Of a DNA stretch of 54,573 nt, positions 1,029 through 47,649 are shown one piece after another. Source of the DNA: Psammoneis japonica (lineage: Eukaryota); assembly GCA_008632985.1 (NCBI GenBank), contig QPGO01000324.1, positions 1 to 54,573 of the forward strand, written 5' to 3'. The notes beneath the pieces are model-generated. The model was not told where the DNA came from. It ran no database searches and saw nothing but the letters and a program-made list of their open reading frames with translations. Numbering within the stretch: the stretch's first letter is position 1; the number at the start of each line of letters is the position of its first letter. A program made the position numbers and the translations under genes.

Positions 1029-3659
1029 GATGGAGAGTGCAGTGTGGGAGGTTCTTGTTAGGGTGAAGATGAGAGAAGCGAGAGAGACTTGCTGTTTCCC
1101 GGGTTTGCTTCAAAATCAAAACCGAAAGCGTCCGTGACGATGACTCGGTCAGGAGCTCTCGTCAACGTGTAAACTTGGGTTCTACAACCAGTCGAGATGC
1201 AGTCCTGCAGCTGGGTAGGATGGATGAGACCTCGGAGGTTGGCAGCAACATGAACAGCACAGAGGCAAACAGACGCTTGTTCAAAGTCGTTGTCTAAAAA
1301 TTGTGACGAATGTCGTTGCTTCTGTTTGAATCGATTTTGTGATGAGCTGGTTGTTTTGAAGAGAAAATCTCAGTCTGGGTTGTGGTCGTGAGATGCGACC
1401 AGAATGACGTTGAGTCGTGACTGAGGCCAATGTTCTCCGGTGGGTTCACGACAAATCCATGGTGGCCATGGACACCCTGGACAACCACTCTGGCAAGAAC
1501 ATGACACAGGCTGGGGATGCCATCCAGAAACTCAGCAGTGAAACCAGGTGCACTTGCAAGACCTGTGAGCACCATTTGCACAGCAGGGTCATGCAACGAA
1601 GATGCAGACCGACTGCAAAGTTGCCATTGCTTGTCTTGAATCCATGGTGACTGCTGTGGAGGCTGCTGTTGAGATGTGCATCTCTGTGAGGGAACTCTTG
1701 CAGGGCTCCTTCAGGACTGTGAGGCCACTGCTGAGAAGCCCGCAGCAGAGCCACCTCCTGTTGACACATCCAACCTTGTCACCCACCAGGCATTGAGAAT
1801 GCCCTCAGCAACCACTGTGATGGTGTTGACACTGCTCTTGTCATGCACAAAAAGGAAGTTGATGCAGTCACTGTGGAGACTGAGCAGTCTTTGAAGGAGG
1901 CTCGCACTGCACATGCCATGGTCGAGGCTGCCCATCATGATGTTCACTCAGCCAGCAAGTCCATGGCCAAGCCCCCTGCAACACCTTCTGCTCCTCCTCC
2001 TCTGCTCTCAACTTCCACATCTGGCACTGACTCTGTCATCCTCACCAAGTTGACCACCATGTTGGAAACAATGGTGGGCCATCTCCATTCTGCCCCCCAG
2101 CTGATGATCCTTCTGCCTCCAGTGCATCCCGTGTTTTGTCCATGTCATCCTCAGAGAAATGTTGCAATGCAAAGAACTTTTGTGAAACTCCTGGTCCTTT
2201 CCTGCCCTCCATGGACAACCCCATTGCCATTGCTGCATTTTTGAAGTCAATGTGCAACCATTGTGTTGAAGTCGGCATTCCTGCCTGGGACCAGGAGGCC
2301 CCCTGTCTGCTGATTGTGCAGATGTCTGCAACCCAGCAATGATCAGTGCTGCCCATCAATCCAAGTGCATTGTGGAACTCCACTCCAGACTCTCTCAGGA
2401 CAACATCCTCCCAGATCATTCACTCCTGGAAGGATGGACAATGTCTGCATTTGCACCCATGATGGATCGTTGCACTGTTCTCACTCAACTTGCTCAAATC
2501 GGTGTTTTGGCCACATCTGGCATCCAGTCAGCCACAACCTTGACATGGGGGGGGGGGGGGGGGGGTGATCTGCACACATTTGTGGCCGAGCACACACCAT
2601 GCTGTTCCATGCAGGATGTTGAAGCCAATGCTTTGTCCACACCTGTGTCACCAAAGCAACATTCACTGGCACTTCTTCAAGCCTCACCCAAGGATTTGCA
2701 CTTGACGGTTGACTCACTTGTGGCCCATCAACAACTTGGTGACATGGATCTGATGGTTCTGTGTGCGCATGAACAATGTCTGCAACATTTTCCATGCTGA
2801 ACCAGAGTGACACTTGTTGGCAATTAAAATTTTCACACATTGTCTGCCTGACATTTCTGCTGACATTCATCACATGTTGATTTTGACTCTGTTCTTGACA
2901 CTTGTCAAGTCAGAAACAACTGAGCTGTTTGTTGCTTGTTTCAAGTCACCAGTGTTGCTCATTGTGTTCACACATTTTTAAACTTGTTAAGTTTGAATGC
3001 ATTTTCCCCTTCTCCCTCCATTTGCTGGCTGTCTCCCATCTGCTTTGCTCCATTTCTGCCAAATCTGTCCTTTTTTCCCACCGCACACACCACAAGCTGT
3101 CTTCTGGCACAAAATCTGCCAACAACAATGGCACACCTGCCCCTGTCATAATCCACTCTGTCCTGGTCAGATGTCTTCCAACAACGACCAGTGTGCTCTC
3201 CCGTGACATTCCCAAAGGTGTCCCCAGTGTTCTTCTTTCTTCCATTGTGGCCTTGACAATGCATCTTCCTCTCCCAGTCACTTTCCAGCTCTTTTGGTGC
3301 ATCAGGGCCTGTCAACCATTCCCTTGATTCAAGCACCAAAGGATTCATGTCCCTGTCTCTTCATGATGGCAATCCGTTGTGCCTTTGTCCAGATGTGCCA
3401 GCAATCAAGAGTTTCAGTCCTCCACCCACGGTGATCTCAAACTCCTCCAATGAACTGCTGGGGGGGAGGGTTCCTTTGACAATGACGTTGTCAACTCTCA
3501 TCATGTGCCTGTGTCAGAAGAACCCAGCATTGGCAATTCCCACCCAGTGATGGTGTCTGCTGCAATGACGTCCTTTTCATGGGGAGGAAGAGTTCAATGT
3601 TCTCTCAGCACAATGTTCTCTGACATCCTCCTCCCTCCCCAAAGAGGACCCCAATGACA

Positions 3660-6300
3660 ATGGTTTGCACTGCTTTGGTGCACTTGATCTGCAGGAGATG
3701 GAAGAAGCTCAGCTGTTGGAACCTCCATGCATTCATGAAACCAATGCCACCAAGAATCTTCACCCGGCAGAAGAAGAGTTGGTCTTGATGATGAAGAAGC
3801 ATCATCTCTCCCATGGCTTGCACAAGTTTTTTCTTTCTTGGGCTGGATGTGCCAAGGAGAGTGATGGTGAGCACATGTCTCTCTCCTGTTCTGCCACCTT
3901 GCAATGCATGAAAACCAAGCATGCCAATCATGTGGGCCCAGAGCCCATTCATTCCACAGTGCATGTGGAACCCGAGTTCCCCCCCAATGCATGTGCACCA
4001 CCAATTTTCCTTTCTGCATCATGTGAGAAGGGTGCTCCTTGACCCCCAGGTTGTCCAGTCTTGTCAGTGGTCGTGCTGTGAGAAGCACTGCCCCAAAACT
4101 GATGAGCACATTCATGACTCTCTTAGCACTGGAGACTGGTGGAAGCAAGTGGAGTTTGATCTCCAATCTTCCCTTGGTGAACTGGGCAATGGCTGCTCCT
4201 CTGGGTCACACTTTGTTTGCCCAGCAATGCTGTTTGACGATTCCACCATTTACGACAACACAGGTTGACTGCAAGCACAACCTGTTCTTGTGACCTTGGG
4301 CAGTTTCAGTGATGAAGTGTCATTGCAGCAGCCACTCCCCTTGGTCAACACTTGGAATGTGCCACCGCATCCAAAGACAAGCAACAAGTGCACCACTGAC
4401 TGCCTGTCAGTCAAAGAACAGACAGGAGATGCACATCAAGCTCTGCCACAGCACCTTGTGGGAGATGTTCACAGAGTTGCTTCAACTGTAAAAGCAAAAG
4501 ACTGGCGCTCCCCCATTGTGGTGCCATCTCTGGGCTTTGTCCATCTCCATTTTTGATTGTGCATGAGGCTGGCATTGCAAAAGGTCATGATGACATGGCT
4601 TGTCACTGAAACTCCCGCTCAAGCAACATGTCCCAGATGAATGGGGACTGTGACATGCTGCAGTGTTTTGGTGACAATCCCTTGTTTAGCTGCAAGTCAA
4701 CTTGGTGAAACAAGAAACCATCCAGGGGATGGTGGAGGCTGCCACAATGGCCATGGAGGAAAGGCACCATGGCAAGGTGACTGCAGCTCACAAACAGTGC
4801 AAGGACATTTCTCAGCACCTGGTGTGTCCCATGTTTTGGGATGTCCCTCATGGCAAAGGCAGGCATGGCACATTTGGCATGCTCCCCTGTGAGCTGTTGG
4901 ATGCCTTGCACTTGGGCGATTAGAAGAATCTGCTTCATGCCTTCTTCAACCTGCATCAAGTCCCAGAAAACGTGTTGTTGTGGTGTTGTGAACATGTTGG
5001 TGAAGGGGAGTGCTGCACAATGGACAACCAACCATCTGTCACATTCAAGGAGCTCCTAAAGCTGTTTCACAAAGCTGAGTTTGAGAGATGCTTCAGAGTT
5101 GTCACACATGCATCCAGGAGGCAAAAGTGATTGAAAAATGCCAAAATCTCCATTTAAGAATTGAGTCACTTTCCAGACTTGTCTGTCTGGTCAAGAGCAT
5201 CCAGGTTTGTTGCTTGCAACACTTGCTGCAATGAAAGGCATGCTTTGAAAGGAAGACAACAGCCTTGAGCCACTGGAGAGTCACTTTGCCCACCTCATGT
5301 TCATGTCATTGGGATTGGATGTGGCATTGTCCAAGCCCTCCCAGCAAGGAAAGCTTTCTTGCATGTCTGCAGAAATGCGCCCTCAAGCACCTCCAATTGT
5401 TTCAATTTGTGGTTGGCCCATTCAGAGAGCGCCGTTCTTGTTCCGGACATTGCATGTCCAAGTTCCATGGTTTTCTTCATTTCCTTTTTTCATTCATCAG
5501 TGCGGCAATGCCAACAACTGTGAGGACCTGGTGGTGAGGAAATCAGAGAAGCATTTGCTGGAGGCAGGTTGGCTCCATGCACAAGAAGATGAGGCTCCTG
5601 TGCCCCACCGACAATCAAATTGTGGATGCACAGACCCTGTTGCTGCATTCAAACCTCACATGAATCCATCATGATGGCCACCCAGGTTGCAAATGCAGAT
5701 GACAACAATGCCACATGGTCTGTGAAATGTAGAGACAAACAGTTGCAGACACCATCCAGTCCATTTGTTCCAGGCAATTGTGGCAATGAGTGGGTGACAT
5801 CCTTGCTGGATCATGCAAAAAAATGTTGAGACTTCCCCATTGATGTTGTGAACTGTTGCTTTGGATGTGATGCTCTGGGGCCAGCCACTGATGAACATGA
5901 CATTCTAAGATGCCATCCAAACTTTCACTCCCATCCATGGAAATGAAGGAGTTGGCATGACTGCGCTGTGGTGAAGTGGAACGATGATGAAACAAGCTGC
6001 TTGGTTGCAGCTCATGTGTTGTTGTGGGTGACCTTGGAGAGCAAAACAATGGAGCGCAAATCCACAGTTTGTGCAACCCATTTGCTCTGGAGCTTCACAC
6101 CAACCAAAGATTCACTCCTGACCTTTTTTTTGGTGACAAGACAGAGTCAGAAATTAGAGTTGTTGATGCTTCTGACACATTGTCCACTGACTTTATTCTT
6201 CCTTTGACTGGGTCATCCCAAGACCCATTTCCTGACAGTTCAGAGGATGCCACTTGTTTTGTGGTTGTTCCACCAAGAATTGACTGGTGCAACATGACTC
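3660..6300 (+). pseudogene. Plavaka-like (CACTA-related) transposase relic
   Basis: Colinear motifs across frameshifts: STGDWWKQ..FVCPAMLFDDST..QPVLVTLG (~4130-4300), GHDDMAC (~4585), FWDVPHG..GTFGMLPCELLDALHLG (~4830-4920), LSGQEHPGLLL (~5185), SKFHGFLH..CGNANN (~5460), ILRCHPNF..WHDCAVVKW (~5900-5980), FVVVPPRIDW (~6260). Confidence 0.65.
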
Positions 6301-9300
6301 TGTCTTTGACAGAGGAACATTTGGACCTTGAACATTTGGATGAATGCTGGCAAATTAATGCAAGTTCCATTGACTGGACATCCCATCTAAATCCCAAATG
6401 TCTGTCCATCACAGTCCAATGAACAAGAGAGTTTTTGTGCCCATTTCACATGACTTGAACAACCTCCTTGTGTTGTTTTGTGGAAAAGGAAACTTTTGGC
6501 ATGATGTGTTTTCTTGCTGTCATCTGGTTGCACCTGACTTCTGTGTTGCCAACACCACTGTGCAGTGGAAATGGCAGCACATCAGCCAGTGCAATGCCTC
6601 TGTCCTTGGCCAGGTCCAGCATCTGGATTTTGTTGTCAATTGTTTCCTTTCACAAATCAACTGTGTTGTTCTTGGGGCTCCGTGCTGTGCTGCACTTGAT
6701 GGCAGAGAAAGCTTTGGCATCAATTTCAACAGGGTCCAAACCATGGCTTGACATGTCAAAGTCTCCCACAAGTGCAATTTCCTCTTGCCATCCAAAAGTT
6801 TGTTCAACACAGCTTCTGGCAGCAGCCAGCCCTCTCCACATGACAAATGGCAAACAAGATTTGCACAACCCAGAAACAAGTCATCACAACAAATGCCAAG
6901 CTCTTTTTCCATTGCAGATTTCCCCAACAAGAGTGGTGGCAATGTCACATGAGACTCTGCCAGTGCTGCCAAATTTGTTTTGTTCTGTGGCTTGCCCACA
7001 ACATGACACCGGCTTGTCAACACTCCCAAGTCAACACCCGGAACTTTCCCTTTTTTGTCAAAGGGCCACACACACACTCAAGTTCTTCATGTGTTTGTTC
7101 TGGGTCATGCTCCAACACAGTGGTGTCAACTGCAGAACTTGGCAGAGAGAGTTTGCTTGGTTCTTCCATTTTTGGCAAAGTTTGCCTTTGACATTGAAGG
7201 GTGTGGTGCAATGGAGATAGAGGCAGAGATGGAGCACAGCTCACCAATGACATTTAAGGGTGTGGGGGGCAATGGAGATGGAGATGGAGAAACAGTGATG
7301 TGAGTTGCAAAGTGCAGTCTCATCAATGCAGTGTTTCATCATGTGCCACAAGTGTGTTGCAAAAGCTGCACTGATTTTCCTGTCAACAATTGATTTCCAG
7401 ATTGATGGCTGCAAGCTTCATTTGCTTGTGTGCAACTCTCATTGAGACAAAACAATTCTCATTCTTTTTTTCTGCGCATTCTTGCAAAACAACTCTTCAG
7501 GTTGGAACTCTCTGTTGCCACCTTGTTGGTTGGGGAAAGACCATTTCTTTGCAGTGAGCAAGAATGGAACCTTGCTGGGCCAAGGTGCGTTTGATGTCTC
7601 AGGAAGATCCAGGAGGGAAGGTTCCAAGAGGAAGGTTCATTCCATCTGCAAGGTTCAAGTTGCATCACAAACATTGCCAATGCCACAATGTTGGCAAGCA
7701 CAATTGAAACGAAAGGTTCAAGTTCCATCACAATCATGCCAGAACAATTGAAACATGCAACAGCACATGCTGAGTGATTCAGAGCTGATGCATGTCTGTG
7801 CAATCTCCAGCTGAAAAGGGAACAAATTCTCTCAGAGGAGTGCAACAACCTAGATCAATTGCTGCAAACATGTGTTGCACAGACACAGCACACATCAGGG
7901 AGAGTCAGTCACACCTCCACCCACTGCTCCACTTGCTGCACATGGACAAAACCAGCATTTCCCAGGAGACCACGTTTTCATTGAGAACTCCATCAGTCAC
8001 ATGCTGACTTGCAGATCAACTTCAGCAGACAGGGCTGTGGCAGTTGATCATGCTTCTCCTGGCTGTGTGCACTTTCAGACATGCAATGGTTGCAACACCT
8101 GGCACCATCCATCAAATGTCAGACTGCTTGCTCAAGCCAAGGCAGACTCCATTTTTTGTGAATGTTGCATGAGATCACAGCCCGATTTTGAGCAAGACAA
8201 AGTGCACCCCACAACTGCATCCACCAAACACAATGGACTGATTTGTCAAATTGGCTGAGGATGGTCAATGGGGTGGGATCCCAAATTGTGGCATGTTGCA
8301 TTGAACAGTGACTGATTTTGGTCAGCATCTTGTGTGAGCTCTTTGGCAAACCTGCACTCATGGACAACAGCCCGTGACCAACTCACTGTGGATTCCATGG
8401 GCTCCATTGCAGTCAAATTCTCAACCATTTTCATTCTGTTTTCTTCAAGAAGGAACTGCCAGGCCACTCAAAAGTCACCAATGAACAAAAAATGAAGAAG
8501 AACCTTGGTCTCTCAGGAAATCCTCTGTGGATCACTTCTCTTTGTTGGCATTTTTTCTCTTGCGTTGTGCCATCATGTGCAACTCTTGTCCATCAATGAT
8601 GGCAAAGGGTCCACATTCTTGACGGTGCAATTCTCCCTCCCCTTTTCTTTTAATTTGACATCTTTGACATCATGGGCAGTTCACCATCCTTCTGCTTTCT
8701 CAAAAAGTTGTGCATTGACAAAGCACCGGAAATGTGTCATGATGGAATGGTGGGTTGGGAAATTGCCCCATTTGCCGTGCCCATCCACTGTGCAGTTGCT
8801 GCATTTTTGGAAGTTTTGTAAATGATGATGGAAATTCATGCAGCTGCCTTCATGTGGTGCAAGGGTGTCAATCCTTTCTTGTGTTGTTCCAAAATCAGTG
8901 TGGCAGCAAATGATGTTTCTTTCAAAAAGGCGTGTGCAATGCTGGTTCTCTGGCAGTTTCCTGTGAACACACAACAGCCAGGCAAGAGTGTGGTTGTCTT
9001 CTTTTGGATTTGGAAACCTTGTGCTGCAATGACAACTTGGTTCTGCAGTGCAGACAACACAGTGCTCCTGTTTGCATCGATGAATGTTTGCCATTGAGTG
9101 CACCACTGTTTGTTGCACAGTCTTGATCAATTGGAAAGAAACAAATCCGAAAACCCTTCTGCAAGGTCAGTGTGCTCTTGCTGACACCTTGTCAAGAATG
9201 AACAAGTTAGAAATGTTTGCTGTGTTGTTGTCACTCCCTCATCATGTTGTCTTGTTGAGAATGCATTAAAAGCACATTTGTCAACCATCAACAACGAATT

Positions 9301-10064
9301 GTCAATGACAGAAAAAACCAAATTCGCAAATCAAACAGCCAGCACACAGCTCAACCAATGCCACCAAGTCAAGTCATGCCCATGCAGCAAGTGCTGCTGT
9401 TGCATCTTCACTCTTCATCCACACAATGGCAGCAGAACAACCATGGACAAAACAAACCTGGACAAGTCTCCCAAGTTAGCTGTCTTTTTGGATGACAATC
9501 TTGATGTGCCAAGCCTTGGCACCACAAACTTGTCAAAGGATTTGTTGATGCCATCTCAATGCAAAAGAAATCACCAGCATTGGAGGACATCATTTGCCCT
9601 GCCAGGTGCCATTCATGTGTCAACAGATGGCACAACTTCCTCCTCCCCTGAAACACCAGTTGTCAAGGAACCTCCAGCAACATCTTCCCGATTGGAAAAC
9701 ATGCACAAAAGAGAAGCCACAGCCCTTTCTCACGGAAGCTCCCATGTTTTGTGATCATCCTAAAACAAGAAAGCGCTGTGCTGAAACTCCATTTTTAGAG
9801 GACAACTGCATGTTTTTCATTCAAAGCAACCAAAAGTGAAAGTGGACAAACCCCTTGTGGTGGACAACACAAAGCTGGAAAAGACATTGGAGGTGACACA
9901 CAATTGGTGTCATCCGGCACTTGTTGCACTGCCACAGTCTGTGTGCAAGGAAGAAATCAGTCATTTGGGCTTGGATGCTTCCACCTTGCAGGAGACGATA
10001 GATGAGCCATTTGAGTCAACCAAGAAAAGTGTGAGTGCAAAGGATGCAAAGGAATGGTCTGCAA

Positions 10065-10120
10065 AAGGAAGGAGGGAAGGAAGGAAGGAAGGAAGGAAGG
10101 AAGGAAGGAAGGAAGGAAGG
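10065..10120. repeat. (GGAA)n microsatellite
   Basis: About 13 near-perfect GGAA units are directly visible. Confidence 0.95.
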
Positions 10121-13100
10121 CCATTGAGATGTCCAGGAAATGCCAAGTTCATTGTGGCAACCACAGCAATCCAAGGTTGAGTGGCCCTGTCACACACTCC
10201 CAGAAATGTGGACATGGGCAGGTTTGGGTCAGTCAAGCCAATTCAAAAGCATGCAGAACAAAAGGACAAGGAGATGGAAGAGTCTGCCAGAGGTGCATCA
10301 TGGAGAGCTTGGGCAAGGCAGCACTGAACACATTCTGCATTGGCTGGCCCATTTATGAGGAGTTGACAGCACGTAAAAAGAGGTGGTGGGCAACCACCAA
10401 CAGGCTTCATGGCTTGGCTAAAGAGTTGCTCAATGGAGAAGAAAGGCACTGCTGCTCCATTGTGGGTGAAAAACCACACACCACCCTCACCATTGCAGCT
10501 GGGTGTGTGCTGGTGGGGTCACTGGCATTCATGTTGACACAAACAATGCATCTGTGGGATGAAGGGGATCACCGGACTTCCATTGCATCCTCACCGACAA
10601 TGCAAACATTGCCCTCCTTGTGTGTGTTCCAGCATGCAAAGGTGTGTTGTGACCAATGTTGGTTTTGCAACGGGCAAAAACCATGACTTGTTTTGTGCAG
10701 GATCATTGCATCATGGAGCACTCACCCATGCAAGCCAATCAAACAAATTGCTCAGTCCCAAGCAAGAGTGGATTGGCAATTGCAGCAAAAATGGGAAATG
10801 TCTGTTCCTGGCTTGGTGCACAAAGCAAAACTTGCCAGTGGTGCACACAATTGATGAGGTGTGCCAAAAATGCAATGTGGAACCTCGTCCATTCATGACA
10901 AAGACAGGCAATGGACCAAATCAAATTCAGAATGAGAACAGGAATGAATGGCAGGATTTCAGCAGTGCAGGTGCCAACAAGGATTGGATCCATCTGCACA
11001 AGAAGTTGGAAGGGATGGAATCCCTTCACAACTGTGGCGAGGAATGCAAAATCTGGCGACATTGGGACAGGCAATTGCTGCAATGACAGCACACTTTGTG
11101 GGCTGCAAATGCTGACAACACATGAGGTTGCTGCAATTGGAACATTGCAAATGGTTGCCACCAAAACACATCAAACTCTGGCAGATCCATGAGCCTGGTT
11201 GGACACATCTTCATTGTTTTCCACAGAAACATCTTGCTCATCTGTGTCCTCATGCTTTCCAACTCTTCTTCCTGTGACACACTGTCATCCTCTGGCATGG
11301 GTGTGGGGAAAGTCACTTCTTCCAATGGGGGGACCGGGTTGCTGTTGCCTGTTCCCTGGTTGTGTGACAAAAAAAATCAAGAGTTGGTGTGACTGGAACA
11401 TCCATCACCAGAGCCAATGAACCTTGATTTGCAATGGCAGCTGGTTGGCTTGGTGCCTTCATCTCCAAATTGTTGTTGGACAAAACAAAGGCAAATCCGC
11501 ACCCTGAATCAGGGTTCCCAGGTTTGTTCAGAGTGCCATCCAATGCCCTGTTGGAGCTGATGACAATGTTGCAACGATTCATGAAATGTGCAATGTCCAG
11601 GGCAGCACACTTCTGCTTGGATTTGACCAAAGGGACATCATTGGTGATGAGGTGTGTGCGCCACTGTGCGCATTCTTGAGCGACATCCTCAGTGGTCAGA
11701 TTGGCACTTTCAGGTGAAGGTGGCACACCATCCATGTTCTCTGCAGGCTGTCAATCAGATTGTCCTCATGGTGGTGGAACACATTGGTGAGGAGAAACTT
11801 TACAGCAATGAACTGGGTGAGTGCCTCCTGCACAACACTCTCCATGCAGTGGGCCACAGTTTGCCCATTGTGCTTGTCGCAGCATTCAGCAACTTTGGTG
11901 TGGCTCTGCTTGCAGTCTTTCATCAGTGTTCAGGCATGACAAAGGCAGACGGCAGTGGCAAGAGGCAGAAATGAGGCCACCCACAGAGACTTGACCATTC
12001 ATCCAAAGCAGCATGCAGCGTGAAGATGAGCTGCATCATGACAATGCACAACGGCACTGTTTTCCTCATCTGTCAATTCAATGCCAGTGGGTGGGTCATT
12101 GAACAAGTCAACAAGAGTGTGCTGGCTTGAAAAAGACAGACAAGCCAAAAACACATCATGAGTGACACAAAAAAATGGGAGAAAAGAGGGAAAGGAAGGG
12201 CATCACCTTGAGCACCGGGATTGGAGCCACACAGACAGAGCAACATTTTTTGAACATGCTTTCCAGGATGGTGGGAAACAAGGCACTCCCAGCCTTTGGC
12301 AGCAGAGTGTGATTGATTTGTGTTTGAAGGTGGGGTGCAAAGGCATTTTGTTCTTGATTCATGCATGTGAGGGCCGACGGGCCAACCTTTTCCCAAAATC
12401 TTTGACAAACCTCAGGTTTGTTGAATTTGTTGTCAACCCGGTCCTGGTCAGCTTTCAGGTTTTTTGGGGATGCATGGTCCCAAACCATCATTGCGATGGG
12501 ACACTCGGAGTTTGCACCAGCATCCAGGAGCAAATGGCAATTCATGGGTGTTCCCTGTCTCTTGTTTGGATGGAAACCCAAGAGCAAACAGAAAAGCATG
12601 CCCCACCTTTGAGTTGCCAACTTTCTTCACAACAAGGTCATTCTCCAAAGTTGTCATTTCATTGGCATGAAGGGTCTGTTGTTGATGTTTCTGGAGAGAG
12701 GTGATCTTCTTGTTGGTGGTGGAAACTTTGGCTGCACAGGCTTTGCACTTTTCCTCAAGCTGCTTGCACATCTTTTTGTTTTGGTTTTTGCAAAGGCTGT
12801 GCATGCACCAGCAAAAAAAAACAGCCACATTCTGCACTGCTTTCCAGTCAATTTTTTGGGCATGCTTGGAGGAGGCTTGAAGCAGATGGGAGTTTTGCAA
12901 GATGGGGCTTCATGGCGCTCCTCAAGAAATTTGAGATCTTCATCTGTGACTGCAGGGGAGCAGTTCTCCGACACATGATCAGAGGTGTCCACTTCATTTG
13001 TTGATGGATCTGCAGCAGCAGGGGCAGATCTTGCATCACCAGCTGGTGGAGCAGCTTCAGACAAAGAGCCTTGATGTTGCTGAGGGCCTGTCCAGGAGCC

Positions 13101-14526
13101 TTGTCAGGGCTGCCTGGGAAGAACTCAACCTGAGGCTTGATCGCCATGAGCAGCACCTCCACCACAGCCACCTCCACCATGGCCAGCACCTGGTTGGTTG
13201 GTCTTGTTCCATCTCCTTGGTGGCATGGTCAATGAACACACAAAATGACAGAAGGGTGTTGATTGAAGTCCCGGAGCTGGGGAGTGTGCAAGCATGAGTG
13301 CAAAAATTTCATCTTGACAAGAGCCAATTGATGTGACAAAATGAAACTTTTGTTAAATGCATGCATGACATTGGCAACCAAATGATTCATTAAAGTTGTT
13401 TCAGGTCATTCAAACATCAGCAATGTGGTGCAAACATGGAATTTAAACCAAAATTGTTGCTGCAAAAGCAATGCAGATGGGAATCAACTGACAGACAGGT
13501 GTGTCATTTTGTCAAAAACATGAATTGTCACTGCCTCACAAGACAAAAAAATGCAAACACAGGTTGCATGCAGCACCACACAATGAAAGCAGTGGGGACA
13601 GGCAATGGCATTGTGGAGGGGACAGAGGAAAATGTGGGACACAAGGTGAGAAAGAGGGAACAAGTGGCAAATGCATGGAGCCAGGGCGAACGATGCACAC
13701 AACTTGCAGTTGCAAAAATCTTTGCAGACAGACATCCAGACTCACAAGCAAAGCCAAAATTGATGACAAGAAGTGGGGAGGGTGAAAAGGTGAACAGCAA
13801 CAGCACATGAGACGTGCTTGCAAGAAACACAAGACACACAAAAATCTGATCATTCGCACGAGGTTTTCTCTGATTGCAGGTGATGCTTTGGCCAACCAAA
13901 GAGGAGGAATGTAAGATGGATTGTTGCAAGACAATGTCATTCCCAGATGTGGATGATTGAGGAGAGGAGAGCAACAATGGTTGCAAGGGAGAACACAGGG
14001 GCCAGACACCCACCGTGCAGGGGCTGTGAATGATGACAGAAACTGGTGCAATGCAGGAGAAGAACAAGGATGGGAAGAAGGGAGCATTTGGCATTCAGTG
14101 TAGAAAAAACCAGACAGAGCATTTGTGAGTCAGACAATGTGAAGCACACAGCCAATGTGCAACCAGGTTAACAAGACAATTGAACATCATTGTTGTCAAA
14201 GACAAACAATCTCAAAAAAAGGTTGCCAACACACACTTGTTAAGACAGAAACAAATGCAAGTGATGAGTTTCATTGACTGTGTTTTTTCACTTGGAAGGT
14301 CAGTTTAAGCATGGACAGAGAATCAAAAATGTTGTTAAAATGAAAAGATGTGAACAATTGTCAAGAATGTGTGCACAATGAGACTGATTTTCATCAACCA
14401 CATTGTCCTGCTTGGAAGGTTCCAACAATTGTTAAAATGGCTTTGCACATGATCAACAAGCACTTGTTGAGAATGCAGGATTCTTGTCAAGCAAATGTGA
14501 GTTCTGAACAAGAGCAACAACATTTT

Positions 14527-15880
14527 CCAGATGAAGGCATTTCAGAATTGGTGGACCCACCATCTTGGCTGTCCTCCCTTCCCCATTGGACACGTCCTCC
14601 CAGTGCACCAAGCCCTGCAAGGCCACCCAGAATCTCCATGCTTGTGGGACATTCACGTCAACAAGATCATGCAGTCTTCATCTGTCCCTTTGCCCCACCA
14701 CCCATGAACCATGCATTTGCAGTGGAGTCGTTGATGGCAAGTCTGTTTTTCTCTTGAAACAGGAGGTGGATGATTTCACCATGGCAGTTAACTCAGAAGC
14801 CACCTGTCACAAGATGTGTGACATCTTTGATCTCCATCTGAAAGGAGAAAAAATCAAATGCCAGGGATTGCTCACCCAATTTCTTGGTTGTGACGTGGAA
14901 CAAACTGGGGGCTGTGTTTGGCTTCACAGCACTTCATGTGTCAAGCACATCCTGGTGTACTGCCCCAACCTGTCTGTCAGCAGCTCTGACTTCCATGGCC
15001 CTGTGACACCAGAGACGCCCATGCCAGGCAATTCTGACCATGCAAAGCTTTTGGATGAAGTTCCCACTCTGCTGGACTTTGCCTCTGCCAAGTCTCTCCA
15101 GACTGCTCAAGGGTTTTTGTGCCACCATGCCATTGGTGAACTCATGTGGGCAATGGTGACTGCCTGAGTTGACCTGAGTTTTGCCACAACCAAACTCAGC
15201 CAGCTCAGCTCCAGACCCCAGCCAGCTGCACTGTGAAGGCATCAAGCATGTGCTGCAGAATCTGCAGGCACACCCAGATTTTGGTTTGACCTGCTGGTGG
15301 ACTCAACCCTGCCCTGCATTCTTGTTTGTGCCTCCTCTGCCCCTCTTGCGGTCCCTCACAACCATGCAGAACTGCGCGTCCGCATGCCGAGTCACCCACG
15401 GAACTCACCAGCTGCAAGGGCTCCAACTGGTCTGCTGACATCCACCACTGCTGCACTGTCAGTGGCATTGCCCACCTGCTTGCGGGCATGGCCATCATTT
15501 GGAAAACTTGGGTTCAGTCCACAGTGTCCACTTTTTCCTCAGAAGCAGAGTTCATTGCGGCATCAGACACTGGTGAGATGGCTTTGCATTTGCACTCTGT
15601 TCTTGATGAACCAAATGTGCCACTGACACAGGCTGTGCTGACGTATGAAGACAATGTGGCCTCTCAGCTGATGGCCAAAGCCAGTCACCCCACCCATCAC
15701 ACATGGCACATGATGGACATCAGGCACTTTGCCCTGCAGGATTGGGTGGAAAGAGATGTGGTGTGCCTTGACAGAGTTCCCACTGTGGCCAATTGCCGCG
15801 ACACACTCACCAAGAACTTAGTGCAGATTTCATTCTTTTGCCATCTTGACATGCTCTCTGGTCACATTCAACCTGCGCAT
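14527..15880 (+). mobile_element. Ty1/Copia pol relic (reverse transcriptase + RNase H)
   Basis: WWTHHLGCPPFPIGHVLPVHQALQGHPESPCLW, PTTHEPCICSG, QEVDDF, AIGELMWAMVTA*VDLSFATTKLSQ, SSEAEFIAA, TYEDN, DIRHFALQDWVE, DTLTK. Contains stops and frameshifts. Confidence 0.9.
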
Positions 15881-15882
15881 TG

Positions 15883-15961
15883 NNNNNNNNNNNNNNNNNN
15901 NNNNNNNNNNNNNNNNNNNNNNNNNNNNNNNNNNNNNNNNNNNNNNNNNNNNNNNNNNNNN
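15883..15961. other. Assembly gap (79 N)
   Basis: Run of N followed by poly-G. Confidence 1.
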
Positions 15962-16006
15962 GGGGGGGGGGGGGGGTCTTTTGGTGATGGCATCATTCCA
16001 CATGGA

Positions 16007-16489
16007 TGCAGGGATCATTGTCACCACCATCATCCCCTGCTTCCTTGCACATGCCCCATGCACCTCCCAACAGGCAATGAAATGCAGATGCGTTGCAAAG
16101 TGCTGTTGTTGAAATTGTGAGCCAGTTCATTCTGGAAAAAGTAAAATCATGTGAACAGGGAACCTTGTCAAATTTCAAATTCCCGTTCATTCAAATTTTG
16201 CATCACATCAAAGCCATTGCTGTTCACACTGTGGATCATGCAGGTCAGGCCACCACATGTCTCTTCCACAAGTGACGTCATCATGATGGGCTGCATTGCC
16301 ATTGGGGGGCAGGCAATGGGCCGCTGCATTTGCACACATCAGTGCTCTCCAGGCACTCCTCTGAATTTGCCTGTCCTCCTTGGATTGTGCTTCCCAGGTG
16401 TGCAAGAGCAGTGCCATGCTGCTGAATGCCAGAGGCTGGTGCCTGGTGCATGCCTCACCATGTTGTCCAGTGAGGATGCATGTTGCACA
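16007..16489 (-). repeat. 3' LTR of the Gypsy element
   Basis: Aligns colinearly with 20819-21282. On the minus strand it starts TGTGCAACA just after a purine run (GGGGAAG, 16490-16496, PPT-like) and ends ...CCTGCA. Confidence 0.8.
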
Positions 16490-19400
16490 CTTCCCCATGA
16501 CCCAGGACACCAATTGTCAGGATGTGGTGCCAGTGACAGGGTGTGATCTGTTGCAGGTTGTGTGTGTCTGTCAGCACTCTGTTCTGGATGCACAGCATGC
16601 TGTTGTCATGTGTGCAGACAGCTCTGGCTGGGCCTGCATGACTGCTGTCAGCATCACATTTTGACTTTTGTTCTTGGTTGACAAGAGTGCCAATTGTCAA
16701 ACAGTGTGTCAGAATTCTTTTGTTTCTCACTTTCATGCTTGTTGTTCAAGTGAACAAGCTTCTGCTTTCTGCATCACATCTGAAGAGCAACTGCACAGGA
16801 CCAGGACATGTGGTTGCATGTGCCACAGCATGTTTTGCAAAAACTGCAGCAGATGGAAGGCTTCTCCATGGGTCATCCTCATCCAGCTCCACATCCTGCG
16901 CTGAAAATGAGTGTGCCACATTGCCAAGCATCTGGTGTGCATGTTCCACTGTGGCACTCATGCCCCTGTGGATTGCACTTGCTTGTGTTTCTTTTTGAGT
17001 GCCACAACCATTTTGCATCATCTGGCTGAACTCTGCCATGAGTTCTGTTCCACGGTCATAAACAACCTGTGCTGGCCACAGGCATCTGCATGGTCCCAGG
17101 GGGCTTGTTCCATGATGTTGCTGCTGCATCCACACATTTTGCAACACTTTCTTGATCTCAAACCATCCAGTTGCCGAGTCAATCATCATGGTCATGGTCA
17201 CCCACAACCACAAGGTGTCTTTGCCACATCTTTGAATTTTTCAGGGCCCTGTCACATCCATGCACAGAGTTTCCCAAGGAATTGTCTCTGTGCCACCTTT
17301 TCTGGCAACTTCCCACAATGCTGCATTCTGTGTTTTGTCTTCTGGGGGCATTGTTGGTCACACTCAATGCATGCAAACTGCAGTGCAGACCTCATGCCAG
17401 GCCAATGGAGAAGTGCTGGGGGCAACAGCCATTTTTGCATGTGTCTCGCTGGGATGACACAGTTGTTCATGGCACCATTCAGCTCAGGAGGGAACCTGTG
17501 ATGACTGTGGGGGGTGCAACAATTTTGTCCTCATGACACTGTGTGGATGGAGCAGCAGTTGTGCAAGTCCTCAGATCATGACAGCAGGCACTTGTCCTGT
17601 TGCTGCTCTTTTGGATCCACTTGAAGCCAGCAGGCAACAACATCAACTGCACTGCATCCGTGCTGAAAGCTTTGTGCAATGGATGAAATGACAGCATCTC
17701 TCAAACCAAGACTTCCAGATTACACTTGGAAGGCAAGCCAGTTGCCAGTTGAAGTCAGCTCAAGTTGTGTTGTCCTTTGACATGCCGCAATTCAGGGCTG
17801 CATTCTTCTTTGCACATTGGCCTCCAGCGCATCATGTGTTTGGTGTTGAACACCTTGCAAGCAAGATTTTTGTGATCAGTGCACATGATTGCATGTTGAC
17901 CAAGGAGAATCACACAAAGTTTTTTCAACATCTCCACAATGGCAAGAGCAATTCTCTCTCCATTGTTGTGTGGTTCAATTGCATGCTGTTGAGCTTTCTG
18001 CTGCAGAGCACAACTGGTTTTTTTTGTGTGATGATGTCACTGCTCTAAGTTGACATTAAGATGCATCGACATGCATCTCAAAAGGTTTGCTTGTTAAAGT
18101 CTGGAGTTGCCAACAAGACATCTTCAAACAGTGCTCATTCGACAGTCAGTCTCTCAGATGCCTTGTCTTCAATGGATGTCTAATTCCAACTGACAGCCCC
18201 ACTTCTTGTGCAAGTCTCATGAGGGGGGCCAAATTTTCAGAATGTCCAAGCCATGCCTCATGGCAGCAGTTTGCCATGCCCACAATTGAGTGGAGTTTGC
18301 ACTTGTTTGCAGGCTTTGCAGCATGTTCAATGGCTTTGACTTTAGTGGGTGTTGGTTGCACACTTTCTTGGTTGACCAAACATCCCAAGCACTCCAATTG
18401 GGTCTGACACAAAAGCAAGACTTCATTGCATTGACTTTCAGCCCTGCCTTCTTGACTCACAACAAGACTTCTTCAACTTTGTGTGGAGGTGGGTTCACAG
18501 GTGCCTTTCATCACAATGAGGAGGTCATCTGAGTGTGTTCATGTGAACAACAGATCCTCAAACAAGGTTGACATTTTCTCCTGAAACTTGTCTGGTGAAT
18601 TGCACAGTCCCATGGGCAACACCTGCATCTTGCGCTTTCCCCATGAGAGGAAAATGAGCATGCAGAGCTTCTTGCTGTCACTGTCCAACTGGATGTGATG
18701 GTGCACTGCACTTGGATCCAAAGATGTGGCCCACACAAGCCTTCCAGCTTTGGCAGCATGTCCTGGATGTGAGGAATTGAACAAGGTGCTTGCTTTGTCC
18801 TCTTGTTCAGCTCCCTGAGAAATCATTGACAAAGCCCAGTCAAGCTGCTGAGTCTTTCTTCAGTGCAATGAAAGATGGAGCTGCCCCCACTGGGATCAGT
18901 CAACATGTTTAAGAGCACCCACACATGCAAGGCACTCTGCTTCTTCATGCAGCATGGCTTTGTGCAAATGAGGTGCTTTGTGTAGATGTCCACGACATGG
19001 TTCTGCATCCTCCTCAAGTTGGGTGTGGCAGGGATCTCCTTTCCAGTGTCCCAATGTCCCATCAACAAACAGGCACTCATGTTGCTTCAATGAGTCCAAC
19101 AGCTTCGCTTGTTGAACACCACCAATTCCCATTGACCCTTGCATTTTGTCCTCAAGGAATGCTGGTGTGCACTTCCTTGGCATCCAAAATGCATGAAATT
19201 TGGTCACTTTCTGACACACCAAGGGCTCTGGATCTTGAAGAAAGAAGGAGGTTTCTGCTGCAGCATCTGTGTTCCTTGTTGGCACTTCTCCATCAACTGT
19301 GGGCCACTCAACAATCTGTTTGGAGAAGACTGTGTCAATGTGCTGTGTTGCCAGAATGTCACATCCAATGATCGTGTCACAATTGCCCAACTTTCTGTCA

Positions 19401-20818
19401 TGTGGACTGTGGACTTTGTGTGCAAGTTCTGCAGTCTTGGATGACTCTGGCAACTTGATTTTTATGGTGCAATTGTCAGTCATTTTAAATGAGCCTGCAG
19501 CAGTGCTCCAGCTTGTCTTGGCCATCACCTGGCTTTGCAAACACTTGTGGCATTGCTTGTCCAGCAGAGTGCTTGCTGCTGCCAGCGCCACTGTCTGGCA
19601 GTGCCCCAATTGTCTGAGTCTTGCCTTTGCTGTGCTGGGCATTCATGGACACAAACAAGACAGGTGTCAAGTGAGTCTTTTTAACCTGTTTGTGGGATTG
19701 GCCCACAACACAAGTGTGATGGCATGACAAATTTTCATTTGTGCATTCATCCAAGGTGTTGAAGCTTCTGGCATTGCACCAGCCTCCTCCTCAGACATCC
19801 ACTTCAGAGTCATCTTTGGAGTTGCTGATGTGCAGATTGTGGAAATGACTGAGCTCCTCCCTGCATTCCGCCTTGCACTTTTTCTTTGCATTGGAGATGT
19901 GGGTCTCTGCTTTCTTCTTGACAACAGAGCTCAACTCTTTCTCATTGGTCATGTGGCCACACAGTCAATCCCGTGTGGCATGCATGACTTCTGGGTCTTC
20001 TTCTGTCTCATGATCAATGACTTGTTGTTGTCAGCTCTGCAGCCCTGCTTGCATGTAGAACCTTGGCACTTTGGCCCAGGATGCCCCCTCACCCCACATC
20101 CTCCACCTGCTCAACTCACTTGCACAATGAGACAAATTTGGCTGTGGTGTGCGCCAACATGTCAGAATTCTGCAGCACCAAAACAGGTTGCATGGCTCAT
20201 CATTGGCAATGACTCCAGAGTGTCTCCACCATCCATTGCAAGCAGAAACTGAGGGATGTGGCAATTGATCTCAACTGCCCTCACGACATGCTTGCATCTC
20301 TTGAACACAGCCGGCTTGCACATGAAACATCACAGACAACACTTTTGCAGTGGGGCCTGCCACCCTGTGTGGAAAGATGCTCTCCATGATTTTTGCCACA
20401 CACACCTTGAAGGTGATGTCAGTCTTGGCATCCTGTGCATCAGCAGCACTCTCAAAAATTGTTGGAGCAGCACTGCCCTTGAGAAGCCTGTGAACAATGA
20501 GTGAATGTTTTGTGGGTCCTGCAGCAATGTTTTGCCCCTGGAACAAGTTCTCGGTGCTGTGCTCAAAAACAAGCCACTTGTCCCACGTTCCTGCAGAAAA
20601 GTGTGACAAACTCAGCTCCCATGTGGAACTGTTGGGAAATGCAGGATTGTTGTGCAGCTTGTGCATCTGGTGCTTGCCCTTTTGAAGCTCTCCTTCTTTT
20701 CCAGGTGCGCAAACAGAATTGGCAGTTGAGCCCACTTCTTCATGGTTGGTTTCACAGTTGTTGGTCCTGCCAACATGTCACAGTCTCAGCTCTCATGGAT
20801 TTGCAACCTTGTGCACCA

Positions 20819-21282
20819 TGCAGGAGCAATGTTTTGCTGTGCCCCATGCACCCAACAGGCAATGAAAATGTGGGTGTGGTGTCACAAAAGTGCCATTGTG
20901 AAAATTGTGGGCCAGCTCATTTCAGAAAAAATGGAGAGTGTGTGAAAAGGGAATCTTGTCAAGTTCGCACTCATTTGGATTTTGTGTTGCATCAAAGCTG
21001 TCACACTGCTTGCATTGTGGATTGTGCAAATCAGGCTGTCATGCACCTTCCACAAATGATGTTGTCATGATGGGCTACACTGCTGTTGGGGGGCAGACAA
21101 TGGGCCAGTGCTGCTGTGCGCATGGATTCTCCAGGCATTCCTCTAAATTTGCCTGAGTTGGAGAGCCATGTCCCAGTTGGATTGTGCTCCCCAGGTGTGC
21201 ATGAGCAGCACTGCACTGCCATGCCCTAGAGGCCAGTGCATGGCCTTGCCATGTTGTCCAGAGTGAGAATGCATGCTGCACA
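20819..21282 (-). repeat. 5' LTR of the Gypsy element
   Basis: On the minus strand it starts TGTGCAGCA and ends ...CCTGCA, followed directly by TGGTGCACAAGG (PBS-like, 20818-20807). No clear target-site duplication. Confidence 0.8.
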
Positions 21283-22645
21283 GGAGCCATTGCCAAGGTG
21301 GACACACAGAACACACAGCTGGCCTCTGCCATCTTGCTGTCAGGGTTCTCCAAAGGCTGGGCTCCACCGCCTTGGAGTTGCCAGCCAAAGTGATGGCAAA
21401 TGCCTCCAACAGCTGCTTTGACTGCAAGTTGGCAGCAGCAGCCTTTTTCCCTCTGTCATCTGTTGCCTCTGGCTTGTGGCTTTGGAAAAGATGTGGGGTG
21501 CAGCCCTGGACACCCTTCTTGACCTTGCACATTCATGGGCAACAAGTTGAGCTGCTTTGGCCATGATTGGGCACTTTGTCTTGCCATGTGTTTTTGTTTC
21601 TTCAGCAGTCACAACCAGCCCCAGTGCCATGGGGGCACCCCACATTGCCATGGTGTGGGTGGCTGCAATGTTTTCTGATGACACACCCAGCGGCAATTTG
21701 ACCAAGCACTTGCTCTCTTCAAGAACAGGACAGACAAGCATGGTGGAGCCGTGGGTGCCAAGTTGTCCACCAGCAGCGGGTTTGATGAGAGGCTGGCATG
21801 GACTCAGAGCATGGTTGTCCTGCAAACATGTTGGGAAGAGCCTCTGCCTTCTGAGGCTGGTGACAACACACCAACAGCGGGGCTCAGTGCGCACTTGTTT
21901 GCAAGGAGCTGGTGGCAACAAGTGAGAAGTTGTTGGGCCAGACATCCAGTGCAGCCATGCAGCAACCAGATCAATTGTGTCCTCAACAATGTGCGCAAGT
22001 GTGTGCTGCGTGCCTCCATGCTTGCCAAGCACTTTGCCCAGGTGAAGCATTTTTTCTTTCTTGTTTTTCCCCAAGAGCAGGGTGCTGCTGTCCACCAAGA
22101 TGGAAGAGAAGATTGGGGGAGGGGCAGAATCAAGACTTGAAAAGTGCCACAATCTTGTCAGGAATTTTGCAAGAATGCTGTTGCCATGATGAGATGACCG
22201 TCACTTGCAGGTTCTTGTCTTTGCGAGGAACGCCGCGCACTTGTGCAAGCAGCAGCTGTGATGTTTGATGTTTGCAAGCACACCAAGATCACAAGATCAT
22301 CAATCGGTCAGCGGTCAGCAAAAGAGGAGCTGCAGAAAGAGGACGCTACAATGCCATTTTGATGTGTTGCTGTCAGGTGTCGTCGTGACAAAGTGCCGTG
22401 TTTTCTACTTTCTGCTGGTAGAGTCAGCAGTTTCTGTAGCAGGCAGGAGTGGCTACATTTCCAAGTGCGTAACGTAAGCAAGAGGTGTGGCTCTGGCGCA
22501 GCTTCTGTGGGCCACAGCGCGCGCGCTAAAAAGGAACGGTGCTGGTGCTGGCTACATACAGTAGGCTGGTGGCTACGGCTGGTGGCTGGTTTTCTTTGCG
22601 GATTACCAACCTCGCGGTGTTGAAGCTGGACTCTAGTTAGAGAAG

Positions 22646-25292: not shown

Positions 25293-25437
25293 TTTGACGA
25301 GTTATCTTTTTGTGTTGTTCGCACTGGACTCGTTGTTTGAGAAATGCTGTGATGCTGTGGCCTCCACGCGCCGATCTGTGCCTTTTTACGGGTTCACTGG
25401 GTTTCACGGTTCACTCTGGGTTCACTCCAAATATGTA

Positions 25438-26645
25438 TACTACAAATTGCTAAACACTTGTCACTCTTCGCACGCAAAGCGCGTTCGATCGCTCTGAAGA
25501 GGAAATTTTCCATTCGTTGGTCGTTTGTACCAGGCTACGTCGAATTCTACAGAAACTCCCTCCGACGTTTCACCCGCGCTTCTCGCAAAACAACACGCGA
25601 CAATGCGGGGAACACCGTCGGCAGTTTGCGACAACTTTCCCTCTCTAATAAAAGAATAGAAATGACAGTATTTGTTCATAGGAATTATTGACACCTTTAG
25701 CATAATGTTGATCGCAAGGAGTTGCAGGATACAGGACTGCTGCACAAGAACAGCACTGCAAAACAAGACGACAATGTTCAGCGTGGCAAACACAACTGCG
25801 CCGAAACTCAAACGCCTGTCAATGACAAGCATTCTATTTAATCATTCAACAATGCTACCTCCATTCCTAGATCTGTTACCTGTAAAGCTAAATTGAAATT
25901 TCTGCTGTCTTCTTCGCGTTGTGCCACTGAGAGCCGACAGCGAGTCGCTTGCTCTGCCGATGCAGAGAATGTTTTTGATGTTTGCATTGCATGCAACACA
26001 TTCAATGTCTCCATCAGTGACATACAACTCTTCCTTCTAGCATGTCTATCACGCACACTTTCGCTCAATGGACTGCGTTGCCCGGTTCAAGATCCCACTC
26101 ATGAGAGAGACGAGTTGAGCGCTCCGTTTCTCTCTTGCGCGAGCCATTTGTGGCCCTCTCATCACCTCGAACATCCACACTGCAACACCAAATGTTCAAC
26201 ATTCGAACGACATTCACCAGCTTCGGTTGATGAAAGATCAATTGAGCCTCGGTGCCACTGAACAAAAGCAAACACCACGCAACACGCCAGCTGGGATGTC
26301 AAAATGGCGCAGACAGAGAACAAACGTGAGTGAAAGCACCAACGGAAACAACACAAGCAACAAAGCTCTCTTTTGTTGCCATCAAGAGCGCACTGAAACA
26401 CGGGAGAGTTGTGAAAATTGGCAGAATCAATGACAATGGGCACCGCCATTGTCGGACACATCCTCGTGCTTCACCGCGTGTTGTTGGTGGTGGTCGGAGG
26501 GAGGAGTCGGAAAGCAGCAAGACTTTGCGCTGTAATTTTCTACGTGGCCTGGTACAAGCGAGCCAACGAAAGGAAATTTTCCTCTTCAGGGCGATCGAAG
26601 GCGCTTTACGCGCGAAAAGTGACAAGTGTTTAGCAATTTGTAGTA
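25438..26645. mobile_element. Non-autonomous TIR element (MITE-like, ~1.2 kb), TA-flanked
   Basis: Imperfect inverted repeats of about 112 bp: TA|CTACAAATTGCTAAACACTTGTCAC... (25438-~25552) and ...GTGACAAGTGTTTAGCAATTTGTAG|TA (~26530-26645). No convincing internal ORF. Confidence 0.85.
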
Positions 26646-27662
26646 TCCTCCGAATTTTGTGACGACGTGGTCGGTTCATTCGTTGCGCGGCGTATTCATG
26701 CTGTATTAATACGTGGGTGCACTTCAAGGTGACTTTTCAAAATGTCGCAGTCATAAATACTGTGATCGAAAATGACCAGCTTCGTCTGAACATTCAATGA
26801 TGCTGGATGCACGCATGCGTCTCTCTAGCTACCGGTACTTCTAGAGCTAGCTATAGCGTCTGTCACCACGACACCTCATGGCCATACCGGTAAGGACGGT
26901 GGTTCATTATTTTGCCGGTAAGAGAGACTCTCAGTTTCACAGTTAGTGCTCCGCCGTCCTCCTAGAAAAGAAAATCATCAGTTCGGCATTCGTTCGCAAG
27001 CGCTATGAGCAGGACGCGAGGAAAGTCTGACTGAAGGAAAGTGCATCGTCATTCTGTGTCAGACGAAGCCACTGATAAAAGAATCGTCTCGTCGCCAGGC
27101 CGTCCTGATCCCGTCCTCTGATACCATCTGTAGACCTGAAAGTGGCCGGGTTCATTACTGTATTTCAGGAACGATCCCGACTCAAGCATAAACATGGAAA
27201 GCAGTTGTGTGGTCACAGAATCGGATTACAATCGAGGCCTCGTTGGAGGACACGCAGTTTTCAACCCTGCGGGCTCGGGCAATCGAATAATGTTAATGTT
27301 TTTATGGTGCGAACCATCCCAGGTTCGCGAAGCGGCAACATTGACAGACTATTTGTGCTTTACACACGGCTCAAAAAGGAGATTCGCCCGTCTCTGATGT
27401 GTGACAAAACGAAAGATAGCAAAGTCTGTATCCAACAACGATGATTTATCGGCAAGAAACAACGTAATTGTTGGCTTGGGAGGCGATTGGCGGCAGCTTG
27501 CATTTTCCAATCAAAGCGCAGGCACGAGATAAGACGTCATCAAGTAGTGAGGTCTTCTAATGATTACTTCTAATGCTACAGCGGAATCGGGTGGTCAAGA
27601 CGAACATATCGGCGTCAGACAATCAGCAAGCCACCGTGTTCACACCTCCCAGTAACATATGT

Positions 27663-47247: not shown

Positions 47248-47649
47248 CTCGTTATGAAGTACCGGCTACATCCACAGTACCGGTGCTGCAGCTATGGGCT
47301 GTGGGTGCGGGACGCCGTACAAATCACGTAGAAACGAATTTCCGTAGATCAAAACGAGAGTTACCTCATTCGATAGAGGCTATTATGAGGTGCATGGGAC
47401 GTACTGTAACCTTTTCATTGGCTTTGTATTTGTCGAGATCGAGAGCGATGAAGTGACCGCCATTTTCCCGTACTTCACCGTGTAATCACGACTGAAAATT
47501 TTCGATTTTTTTTTTGCACGATGACTCGTTTGTAGTTTTGCCGAATGTTGTTGCGGCTTTTGTGACGCCAACAGTGACCGACAACAAAAGTAGAAGCCAT
47601 CACGTCTCCTATGATGTATCTACCATGTCAACTGACACTATGCTAGTTG

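Follow-up and report, generated by a model that had tools for sequence, protein, structure and literature searches.

The question raised by this locus is whether a transposon copy lying among genes can lose its TA steps while keeping its CG steps, and whether such a loss took place where the copy now sits or came along with it. The locus belongs to a 54,573-nt contig of the diatom Psammoneis japonica (QPGO01000324.1, assembly GCA_008632985.1; "the window" hereafter means this whole stretch), in which a gene island is enclosed by two flanking domains. Within the island, an intergenic repeat element bounded by terminal inverted repeats (TIRs) carries a block devoid of TA. A sequence-only reading had attributed this block to a process that acts on TA apart from CG decay, that found this isolated copy and that hit its centre hardest. 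The first of these ideas was supported by our analysis; the other two were not. We consider it probable that the block is TA-free mainly because the lineage of the family parental to this copy already had hardly any TA in the module concerned, that one or two further TA>CA changes arose privately in this copy, and that the resulting composition records an early stage in the action of a TpA-specific A:T>G:C transition process on selfish DNA.

Counting of positions 26049-26532 (484 bp) returned 0 TA and 29 CG, the same values as a previous hand count, and the TA-free run is bounded by TA at 26047 and TA at 26533 (486 bp). Observed/expected (o/e) ratios in the block were 0 for TA, 0.91 for CG and 1.51 for TG and CA taken together. 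With base counts of A 138, C 130, G 119 and T 97, the block holds 55 CA and 37 TG, both above the level set by base content. At the o/e of the island, 16.4 TA would be expected in the block and none was observed; at the island ratio, 70.5 TG+CA would be expected and 92 were found, a surplus of about 21 that roughly matches the TA deficit.

A TA-free run of 486 bp is exceptional within the gene island, though not for the window as a whole. It is the longest such run of the island (22500-47500), and it was never reached when the island was simulated 300 times with a first-order Markov model, the longest TA-free run per simulation averaging 184 bp, with a maximum of 314 bp. The second-longest run of the island (376 bp) lies in the reading frame of a PhyH protein. 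Over the whole window we found 20 TA-free runs longer than the block, located in both flanking domains, and every one of them is also poor in CG.

Avoidance of TA for functional or compositional reasons, the block being coding exon sequence, structured RNA, a regulatory module under selection against UpA/TpA or CA-rich low-complexity sequence, might also account for such a run. UpA/TpA avoidance is general, the island itself has a TA o/e of 0.59 and contains the TA-free run of the PhyH frame, and the block is rich in A+C. However, stops (TGA) occur in all six frames of the element, its three longest open reading frames (ORFs) gave no Pfam match, no relative was found in a large protein collection, and when the core ORF 26119-26430 was searched at the protein level, no candidate for a translated copy came up. 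Rfam and tRNA scans were empty both for the block and for the whole element, and the fold z-scores of the block (-1.54 and +0.36) were unremarkable. In addition, the TG+CA o/e of the coding TA-free run is normal (1.20, against 1.51 in the block), and copies of the element vary at 323 places, about 1 position in 4, which is a poor fit to strong constraint. A functional or compositional origin of the block is therefore, in our judgement, quite improbable.

The element lies between an acidic-protein ORF (24339-25301, minus strand) and a gene region starting at about 27100. Its 116-bp ends form inverted arms that are 88% identical over 117 columns and differ at about 12 columns, 6 of these differences being transitions. 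Both arm differences named by the sequence-only reading, at TA/CA sites, are present (GCAAAG against GTAAAG at column 51, GGCTAC against GGCCAC at column 113), but they run in opposite directions and make up only 2 of the approximately 12. The TIRs retain 6 and 7 TA steps; some of these stand in GTAC or CTAC, of which the flanking domains have almost none left. The midpoint of the element falls at about 26041, and the block takes up all of the interior's right half, reaching the inner end of the right TIR. Its edges are sharp, TA steps being found at 26023, 26038 and 26047 to the left and at 26533, 26541 and 26553 to the right. This layout does not agree with a centre hit hardest. The description of the block's surroundings as rich in TA held only in relative terms, the left interior having a TA o/e of just 0.48. 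Two further ideas about the layout were discarded: the left interior is not an inverted copy of the block, as blastn gave no match, and ADAR-type editing of a TIR hairpin RNA does not suit an element in which the TIRs keep TA and the TA-free part is the loop side.

Miniature inverted-repeat transposable elements (MITEs) and non-autonomous TIR DNA transposons have TIRs, are noncoding, occur in many copies, include deletion derivatives and lie beside genes; by convention, MITEs are usually under about 800 bp. The element is MITE-like in having TIRs at both ends, in being noncoding and multicopy, in having deletion derivatives and in adjoining genes. With 1210 bp and 116-bp TIRs this copy would be large for a MITE, though the family also includes shorter TIR-to-TIR forms, and it has no recognisable target-site duplication. 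No autonomous partner or superfamily was identified for it. Within the window, neither blastn nor a scan of purine/pyrimidine-collapsed 36-mers found a second copy; the TIRs themselves, an old repeat pair and a microsatellite were all that the latter returned. Metagenomes were scanned with two patterns, the 26-nt TIR tip and a degenerate 36-nt pattern from the core, and each gave 0 loci. Taken together with the contig data described below, these features identify the element as one copy of a MITE-like, multicopy and noncoding family of diatom DNA transposons bounded by TIRs.

Contigs from the public DNA run containing the locus and from two sister runs were aligned on 21500-27500 at a likeness of at least 80%; two of the contig sets are referred to as X1 (210 contigs on 21500-27500) and X2. 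In X1, depth was 58-65 over unique DNA and 380-1220 exactly across the element, with the rise at the TIR tips, and unique contigs ended 39 and 31 nt within the two arms. Depth over the two TIRs was about 980 and 810 (by arithmetic on bins), and the block, with 1215-1221 over 26123-26524, exceeded the left interior (382-558), which occurs in fewer copies than the other parts of the element. These data indicate a family of roughly 14-20 copy-equivalents, structurally varied, whose homology ends at the TIR tips. Membership in such a family does not support the view that the process found this copy as an isolated repeat; as shown below, the TA-free state of its block is mostly shared.

The structure of other copies bears directly on the edges of the block. 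Short TIR-to-TIR forms are joined at 25519>26489 and 25533>26590 (skipping 969 and 1056 bp), and further joints bypass parts of the left interior (25740>26069 and 25982>26081). Other copies have homology breakpoints near the block start at 26048: four independent ones within 21 bp, namely two loose ends (26045 and 26059) and two joints (landing at 26062 and 26069), and a fifth, again a joint, at 26081. Because the left edge of the block coincides with module breakpoints and the right edge with the inner end of the TIR, the block is better described as an inherited module than as a local gradient.

The same contigs allowed us to consider an assembly or base-calling error, whether through misread modified bases or through a consensus made chimeric from several copies. 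Of the 31-mers sampled from 25300-26800, a share of just 0.66 is present in the public DNA run containing the locus, the window letter is found in no contig at six positions (25861, 25883, 25927, 25947, 25987 and 26325), and the window contains a 79-N scaffold gap at 15883-15961; the individual letters of this copy are consequently not all independently confirmed. On the other hand, an X1 contig (4523 nt, word depth 65) reproduces 21500-22119 of the left flanking domain apart from 2 differences, word depths near 60 imply that the reads are accurate, and other copies of the block are themselves poor in TA. X1 may be the source of the assembly, which makes this support not fully independent. Since a public-run contig matches 21500-22119 at single-copy depth, the composition of the flank was not invented by the assembly. 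We regard an artefact as extremely improbable for the block and the flanks.

We then compared the block with its family letter by letter. The comparison covers 40 of 346 differences, apparently those with a share of at least about 0.8 in some run, and the positions and counts that follow are among these 40. A different letter in at least 80% of X1 depth was found at 8 positions of the block. Two of the eight restore TA in the family (26352, share 0.96; 26457, share 0.86), three are CG in this copy where the family has CA or TG (26126, 26251 and 26325), two have CA in this copy and CG in the family (26281 and 26429), and the remaining one (26252) affects neither a TA nor a CG step. Because TA is present in at least 80% of the family depth at only two positions of the block, its TA-free state looks mostly inherited. 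Measured against the majority of the family, the losses of this lineage are 2 of 2 TA and 2 of about 31 CG, which is suggestive although the numbers are tiny. At 26352 the C of this copy accounts for about 52 of 1264 depth units, approximately one single-copy equivalent, which makes at least one TA>CA change private to this copy; in all, one or two such private changes look to have taken place.

Turnover between TA and TG/CA is real in the family. Minority copies carry TA at 26194, 26200 and 26244, where the difference is a transition, and at 26239, where it is a transversion; other copies have TA where this one has CA or TG at 26194, 26200, 26244, 26352 and 26457. In the left interior the situation is reversed, this copy having TA at 25857 and 25883 and other copies TG or CA. 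TA versus TG/CA polymorphism was thus seen at seven columns of the element, five of them within the block. The sequence-only reading had named a family already free of TA, without such polymorphism at the same columns, as the observation that would tell against it: the family proved to be nearly TA-free already, but the five columns of the block are polymorphic.

These results have to be set against erasure in situ, by which the inserted copy would have been recognised as a repeat and some 16 TA steps converted locally before CpG decay. Several observations point in this direction. At 26352, and perhaps at 26457, CA is found in only about one to two single-copy depth equivalents and the family has TA; the signature is partly present in the left interior (TA o/e 0.48, TG+CA o/e 1.38); the border zones of the flanking domains, described below, show a process able to act on CG-bearing DNA; and a TpA-directed process reported for the alga Bigelowiella natans strikes single-copy inserts in bursts (Mettrop et al., bioRxiv 10.64898/2026.01.13.699255). 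In contrast, most of the TA-free state is shared with the family, with only the two positions named above being TA in at least 80% of the family depth; the edges of the block are sharp and the left one falls at the module breakpoints of other copies; the TIRs retain GTAC and CTAC; and the block is off-centre. We therefore find it unlikely that the block as a whole was erased in place.

Some points nevertheless weigh against a largely inherited TA-free module. The two or three more diverged copies of X2 have at least 4 TA within 26059-26279 (26194, 26200, 26239 and 26244), from which it follows that the ancestral module was less TA-poor and that part of the loss could be recent. The partial signature of the left interior would fit some action in situ on the whole element. 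The sequences next to the element (...AAATATGT and CCTCCGAA...) have no common direct repeat; a target-site duplication may have decayed, and the insertion can consequently be neither dated nor proven. Summed contig depth approximates copy numbers and cannot give them, and the family was compared by shares of contig depth. Columns with TA in 20-80% of copies possibly lie outside the 40 differences compared, and a family consensus may therefore hold more than two TA. Finally, the direction and timing of the changes were inferred by majority rule within one genome.

The borders of the flanking domains point the same way as the block. At all three domain borders (see the table), the TA-free zone reaches 150-520 bp past the CG-poor zone, and at 47645-48166 the loss of TA extends further toward the genes than that of CG. 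The converse, CG gone and TA present, was seen nowhere in the window. In methylated transposons, deamination of 5-methylcytosine turns CpG into TG/CA, symmetrically on both strands. This decay resembles what we see in that a palindromic pyrimidine-purine step becomes TG/CA on both strands, and it accounts for the low CG of the flanks (o/e 0.13). However, it cannot remove TA, the CG of the block is normal in the absence of TA, and the border zones lose TA first; as the sole cause of the footprint, 5-methylcytosine-driven decay was rejected on the 29 CG of the block. RIP, the repeat-induced point mutation known from ascomycete fungi, disables repeats by dinucleotide-specific transitions that turn CpA into TpA and so raise TpA. 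RIP is similar in its dinucleotide-specific transitions on repeated or foreign DNA and in its distinct domains beside gene islands, but its direction is exactly the opposite: it produces an excess of TpA and a deficit of CpA/TpG, whereas the flanks of the window have a TA o/e of 0.04 and a CA/TG o/e of about 1.86. A strand-specific process was rejected as well, CA and TG being balanced in the flanks. All in all, the block, the three border zones and the TpA-only hypermutation described in the B. natans preprint support the view that TA loss is separable from CG loss and is not its by-product, as the sequence-only reading had proposed.

The doubly erased flanks are the main phenomenon of the window. 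The two domains, about 27 kb together, have o/e ratios of 0.04 for TA, 0.13 for CG, 1.89 for CA and 1.83 for TG; nearly all of their pyrimidine-purine steps are TG or CA, in equal numbers, and their TA-free runs are up to 1553 bp long. When flank ORFs were taken from stop to stop (at least 90 aa) and searched against Pfam, 2 of 131 gave retroelement matches, the sole protein-domain traces there. Together these matches mark a decayed Ty3/gypsy-like retroelement remnant in the left flank (17758-18859, minus strand), whose translations contain no Tyr, as dictated by TA-free DNA; sites at which Tyr is conserved may instead have Cys or His. The RNase H remnant had no relatives in a large protein collection, and its best match in PDB was a designed coiled-coil (E 0.87). 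The TpA footprint therefore falls on selfish DNA, the block being part of a transposon family and the left flank containing the RT_RNaseH remnant. The only repeat pair within the flanks, 16052-16489 and 20840-21282, is old (70% identical). Transitions dominate the differences between its two copies, and many of them form adjacent TG<>CA doubles, which would be expected if ancestral CG or TA steps had been resolved differently in each copy.

The TA steps that survive in the flanks, for example within 2825-21227, are not a random sample. Of 80 left, 28 are in TTAA and 22 in TTAG or CTAA; in the island, TTAA accounts for 35 of 952 TA. Expressed per 10,000 tetranucleotides, flank versus island values are 10.5 and 14.7 for TTAA (about 71%), 0.4 and 35.7 for GTAC, and 0 and 26.1 for ATAT. 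This uneven survival indicates that the process, or its balance with the creation of new TA, depends on context, and the survival of TTAA may reflect the sequence rule of the mutator. A tetranucleotide regression of the TG gain in the flanks (r 0.54 for TA contexts, -0.10 for CG contexts, R2 0.22) assumes that the flanks formerly had the composition of the island, and was not used as evidence.

The closest known system is the TpA-specific hypermutation of integrated viral DNA reported for B. natans (Mettrop et al., bioRxiv 10.64898/2026.01.13.699255). In that work, 230 of 231 single-nucleotide mutations in two hypermutable viral regions were A:T>G:C, all on TpA; hypermutation occurred in 11 of 15 mutation-accumulation lines, and the TpA>TpG/CpA rate, measured directly, was about 6e-7 per site per generation. 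TpA-depleted, CpA+TpG-enriched clusters were described in that genome, with low-TpA coding sequences enriched for reverse transcriptase and DDE domains, and the authors proposed an ADAT2-like adenine deaminase acting on DNA. The text of the preprint makes no mention of diatoms, CpG or flanking context; RIP is cited in it.

Both footprints show TpA turned into TpG or CpA on either strand and TpA depletion with a matching gain of CpA+TpG, are confined to particular regions of foreign or repeat origin and are independent of the usual GC>AT bias. Against the B. natans cut-offs (Rho TpA of at most 0.43, CpA+TpG of at least 1.52), the values of the block are 0 and 1.51, the second just short of the limit. 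There are also clear differences. In B. natans the mutations were caught as they arose, whereas the diatom window shows the end product only; B. natans is a rhizarian and belongs to a different supergroup; and the depletion is deeper in the diatom flanks (o/e 0.04) than in the nucleocytoplasmic large DNA virus insert of B. natans (0.45). The targets in the diatom are a small TIR element and old retroelement debris instead of giant-virus inserts. In addition, the diatom flanks also lose CpG, whereas the block, with its CG o/e of 0.91, has changed at TpA only, and the TA survivors of the flanks are mostly TTAA.

A scheme in which the near-TA-free module was inherited would account for these observations as follows. 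The TpA process would remove TA faster than methylated CpG decays, leaving the composition seen in the block, and in the retroelement-bearing domains that enclose the island it would, together with the slower CpG decay, have run its full course. The TA steps of the TIRs may have been kept because only copies with intact ends were amplified, and the TA-richer left interior would be a separate module with a different history. As for the cause, we infer an enzyme, which could be an adenine deaminase acting on DNA or an activity that places a mutagenic modification on the palindromic TpA step. More tentatively, and with somewhat less than even confidence, we propose that diatoms may carry a TpA-directed DNA hypermutation defence like that of B. 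natans, which would hit transposon families without depending on cytosine-methylation decay and at a faster pace than that decay, and would largely spare TTAA, the block representing an early stage and the flanks the end stage.

Table. Coordinates of the repeat element, its parts and the surrounding domains in the window (o/e, observed/expected; TIR, terminal inverted repeat).
Feature	Positions	Strand	Basis or remarks
TA-free block	26048..26532	.	0 TA, 29 CG; most abundant module of the family
Whole TIR-bounded repeat element, ~1210 bp, noncoding	25437..26646	.	inverted arms; rise in contig depth
Left TIR	25437..25552	+	keeps TA, including GTAC and CTAC contexts; depth ~1148 at 25541
Left interior module	25553..26047	.	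18 TA (o/e 0.48), CG o/e 0.95, TG+CA o/e 1.38; depth 382-558
Right TIR	26530..26646	-	TA resumes at 26533, 26541, 26553
Border zone	1296-1449		0 TA, 9 CG
Border zone	22199-22346		0 TA, 8 CG
Border zone	47645..48166		1 TA, 19 CG
Gene island	~22.5-47.5 kb		o/e: TA 0.59, CG 1.00, CA 1.17, TG 1.14
Left flanking domain, TA and CG both erased	1500..22000	.	composition; single-copy depth 65 at 21500-22119
Right flanking domain, TA and CG both erased	48200..54573	.	composition
RT_RNaseH remnant	17758-18036	-	Pfam E 1.6e-6, above cut-off
RVT_1, weak, sub-threshold	18542-18859	-	Pfam E 7.6e-4

The remaining parts of the window add the following observations. Long reading frames of the window encode HSF, RPN1, PhyH, SAC3/GANP, LRR, CIA30, Sec62, WD40 and PIG-U proteins, and diatom RPN1 proteins share 83-89% identity with the RPN1 fragment (87% for Ditylum, Eucampia and Trieres). 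X2 covers gene bodies only, and unevenly (5 to 637), is deepest over the acidic-protein ORF beside the element (24260-25112) and looks like transcript data; no X2 contig of at least 95% likeness was found on the interior of this copy, and no RNA run was listed as containing the locus, neither of which says anything on expression. A second small repeat lies at 22304-22504 (summed contig depth 220), with indel variants at 22335-22347 (depth about 785). The left end of the window, 1-1295, is GC-rich (0.54-0.58), with a TA o/e of about 0.2, a CG o/e of 0.8-1.2 and a TG+CA o/e of 1.13-1.39; its ORFs gave no Pfam match, and it may be a gene or partly affected sequence. A purine-rich microsatellite at about 10062-10084 reads as KEGR repeats.

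A genome defence that rewrites TpA has so far been reported, very recently, in a single chlorarachniophyte, and our literature searches brought up no counterpart in diatoms. The diatom window shows the same footprint as that described for B. natans, and far deeper. The block and the three border zones preserve an intermediate state that is absent from the fully erased domains, one in which TA loss would precede CpG decay and run apart from it. This state makes the order and independence of TA and CG loss testable and offers a concrete transposon family to follow. It also carries a lesson of method: a TA-free repeat in a gene island may have inherited its composition, and targeting in situ needs copy-by-copy proof. 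If diatoms do have such a TpA-directed defence, marine algae that are only distantly related would share it widely, and the sequence rule by which it hits VTAB and spares TTAA could point to the enzyme.

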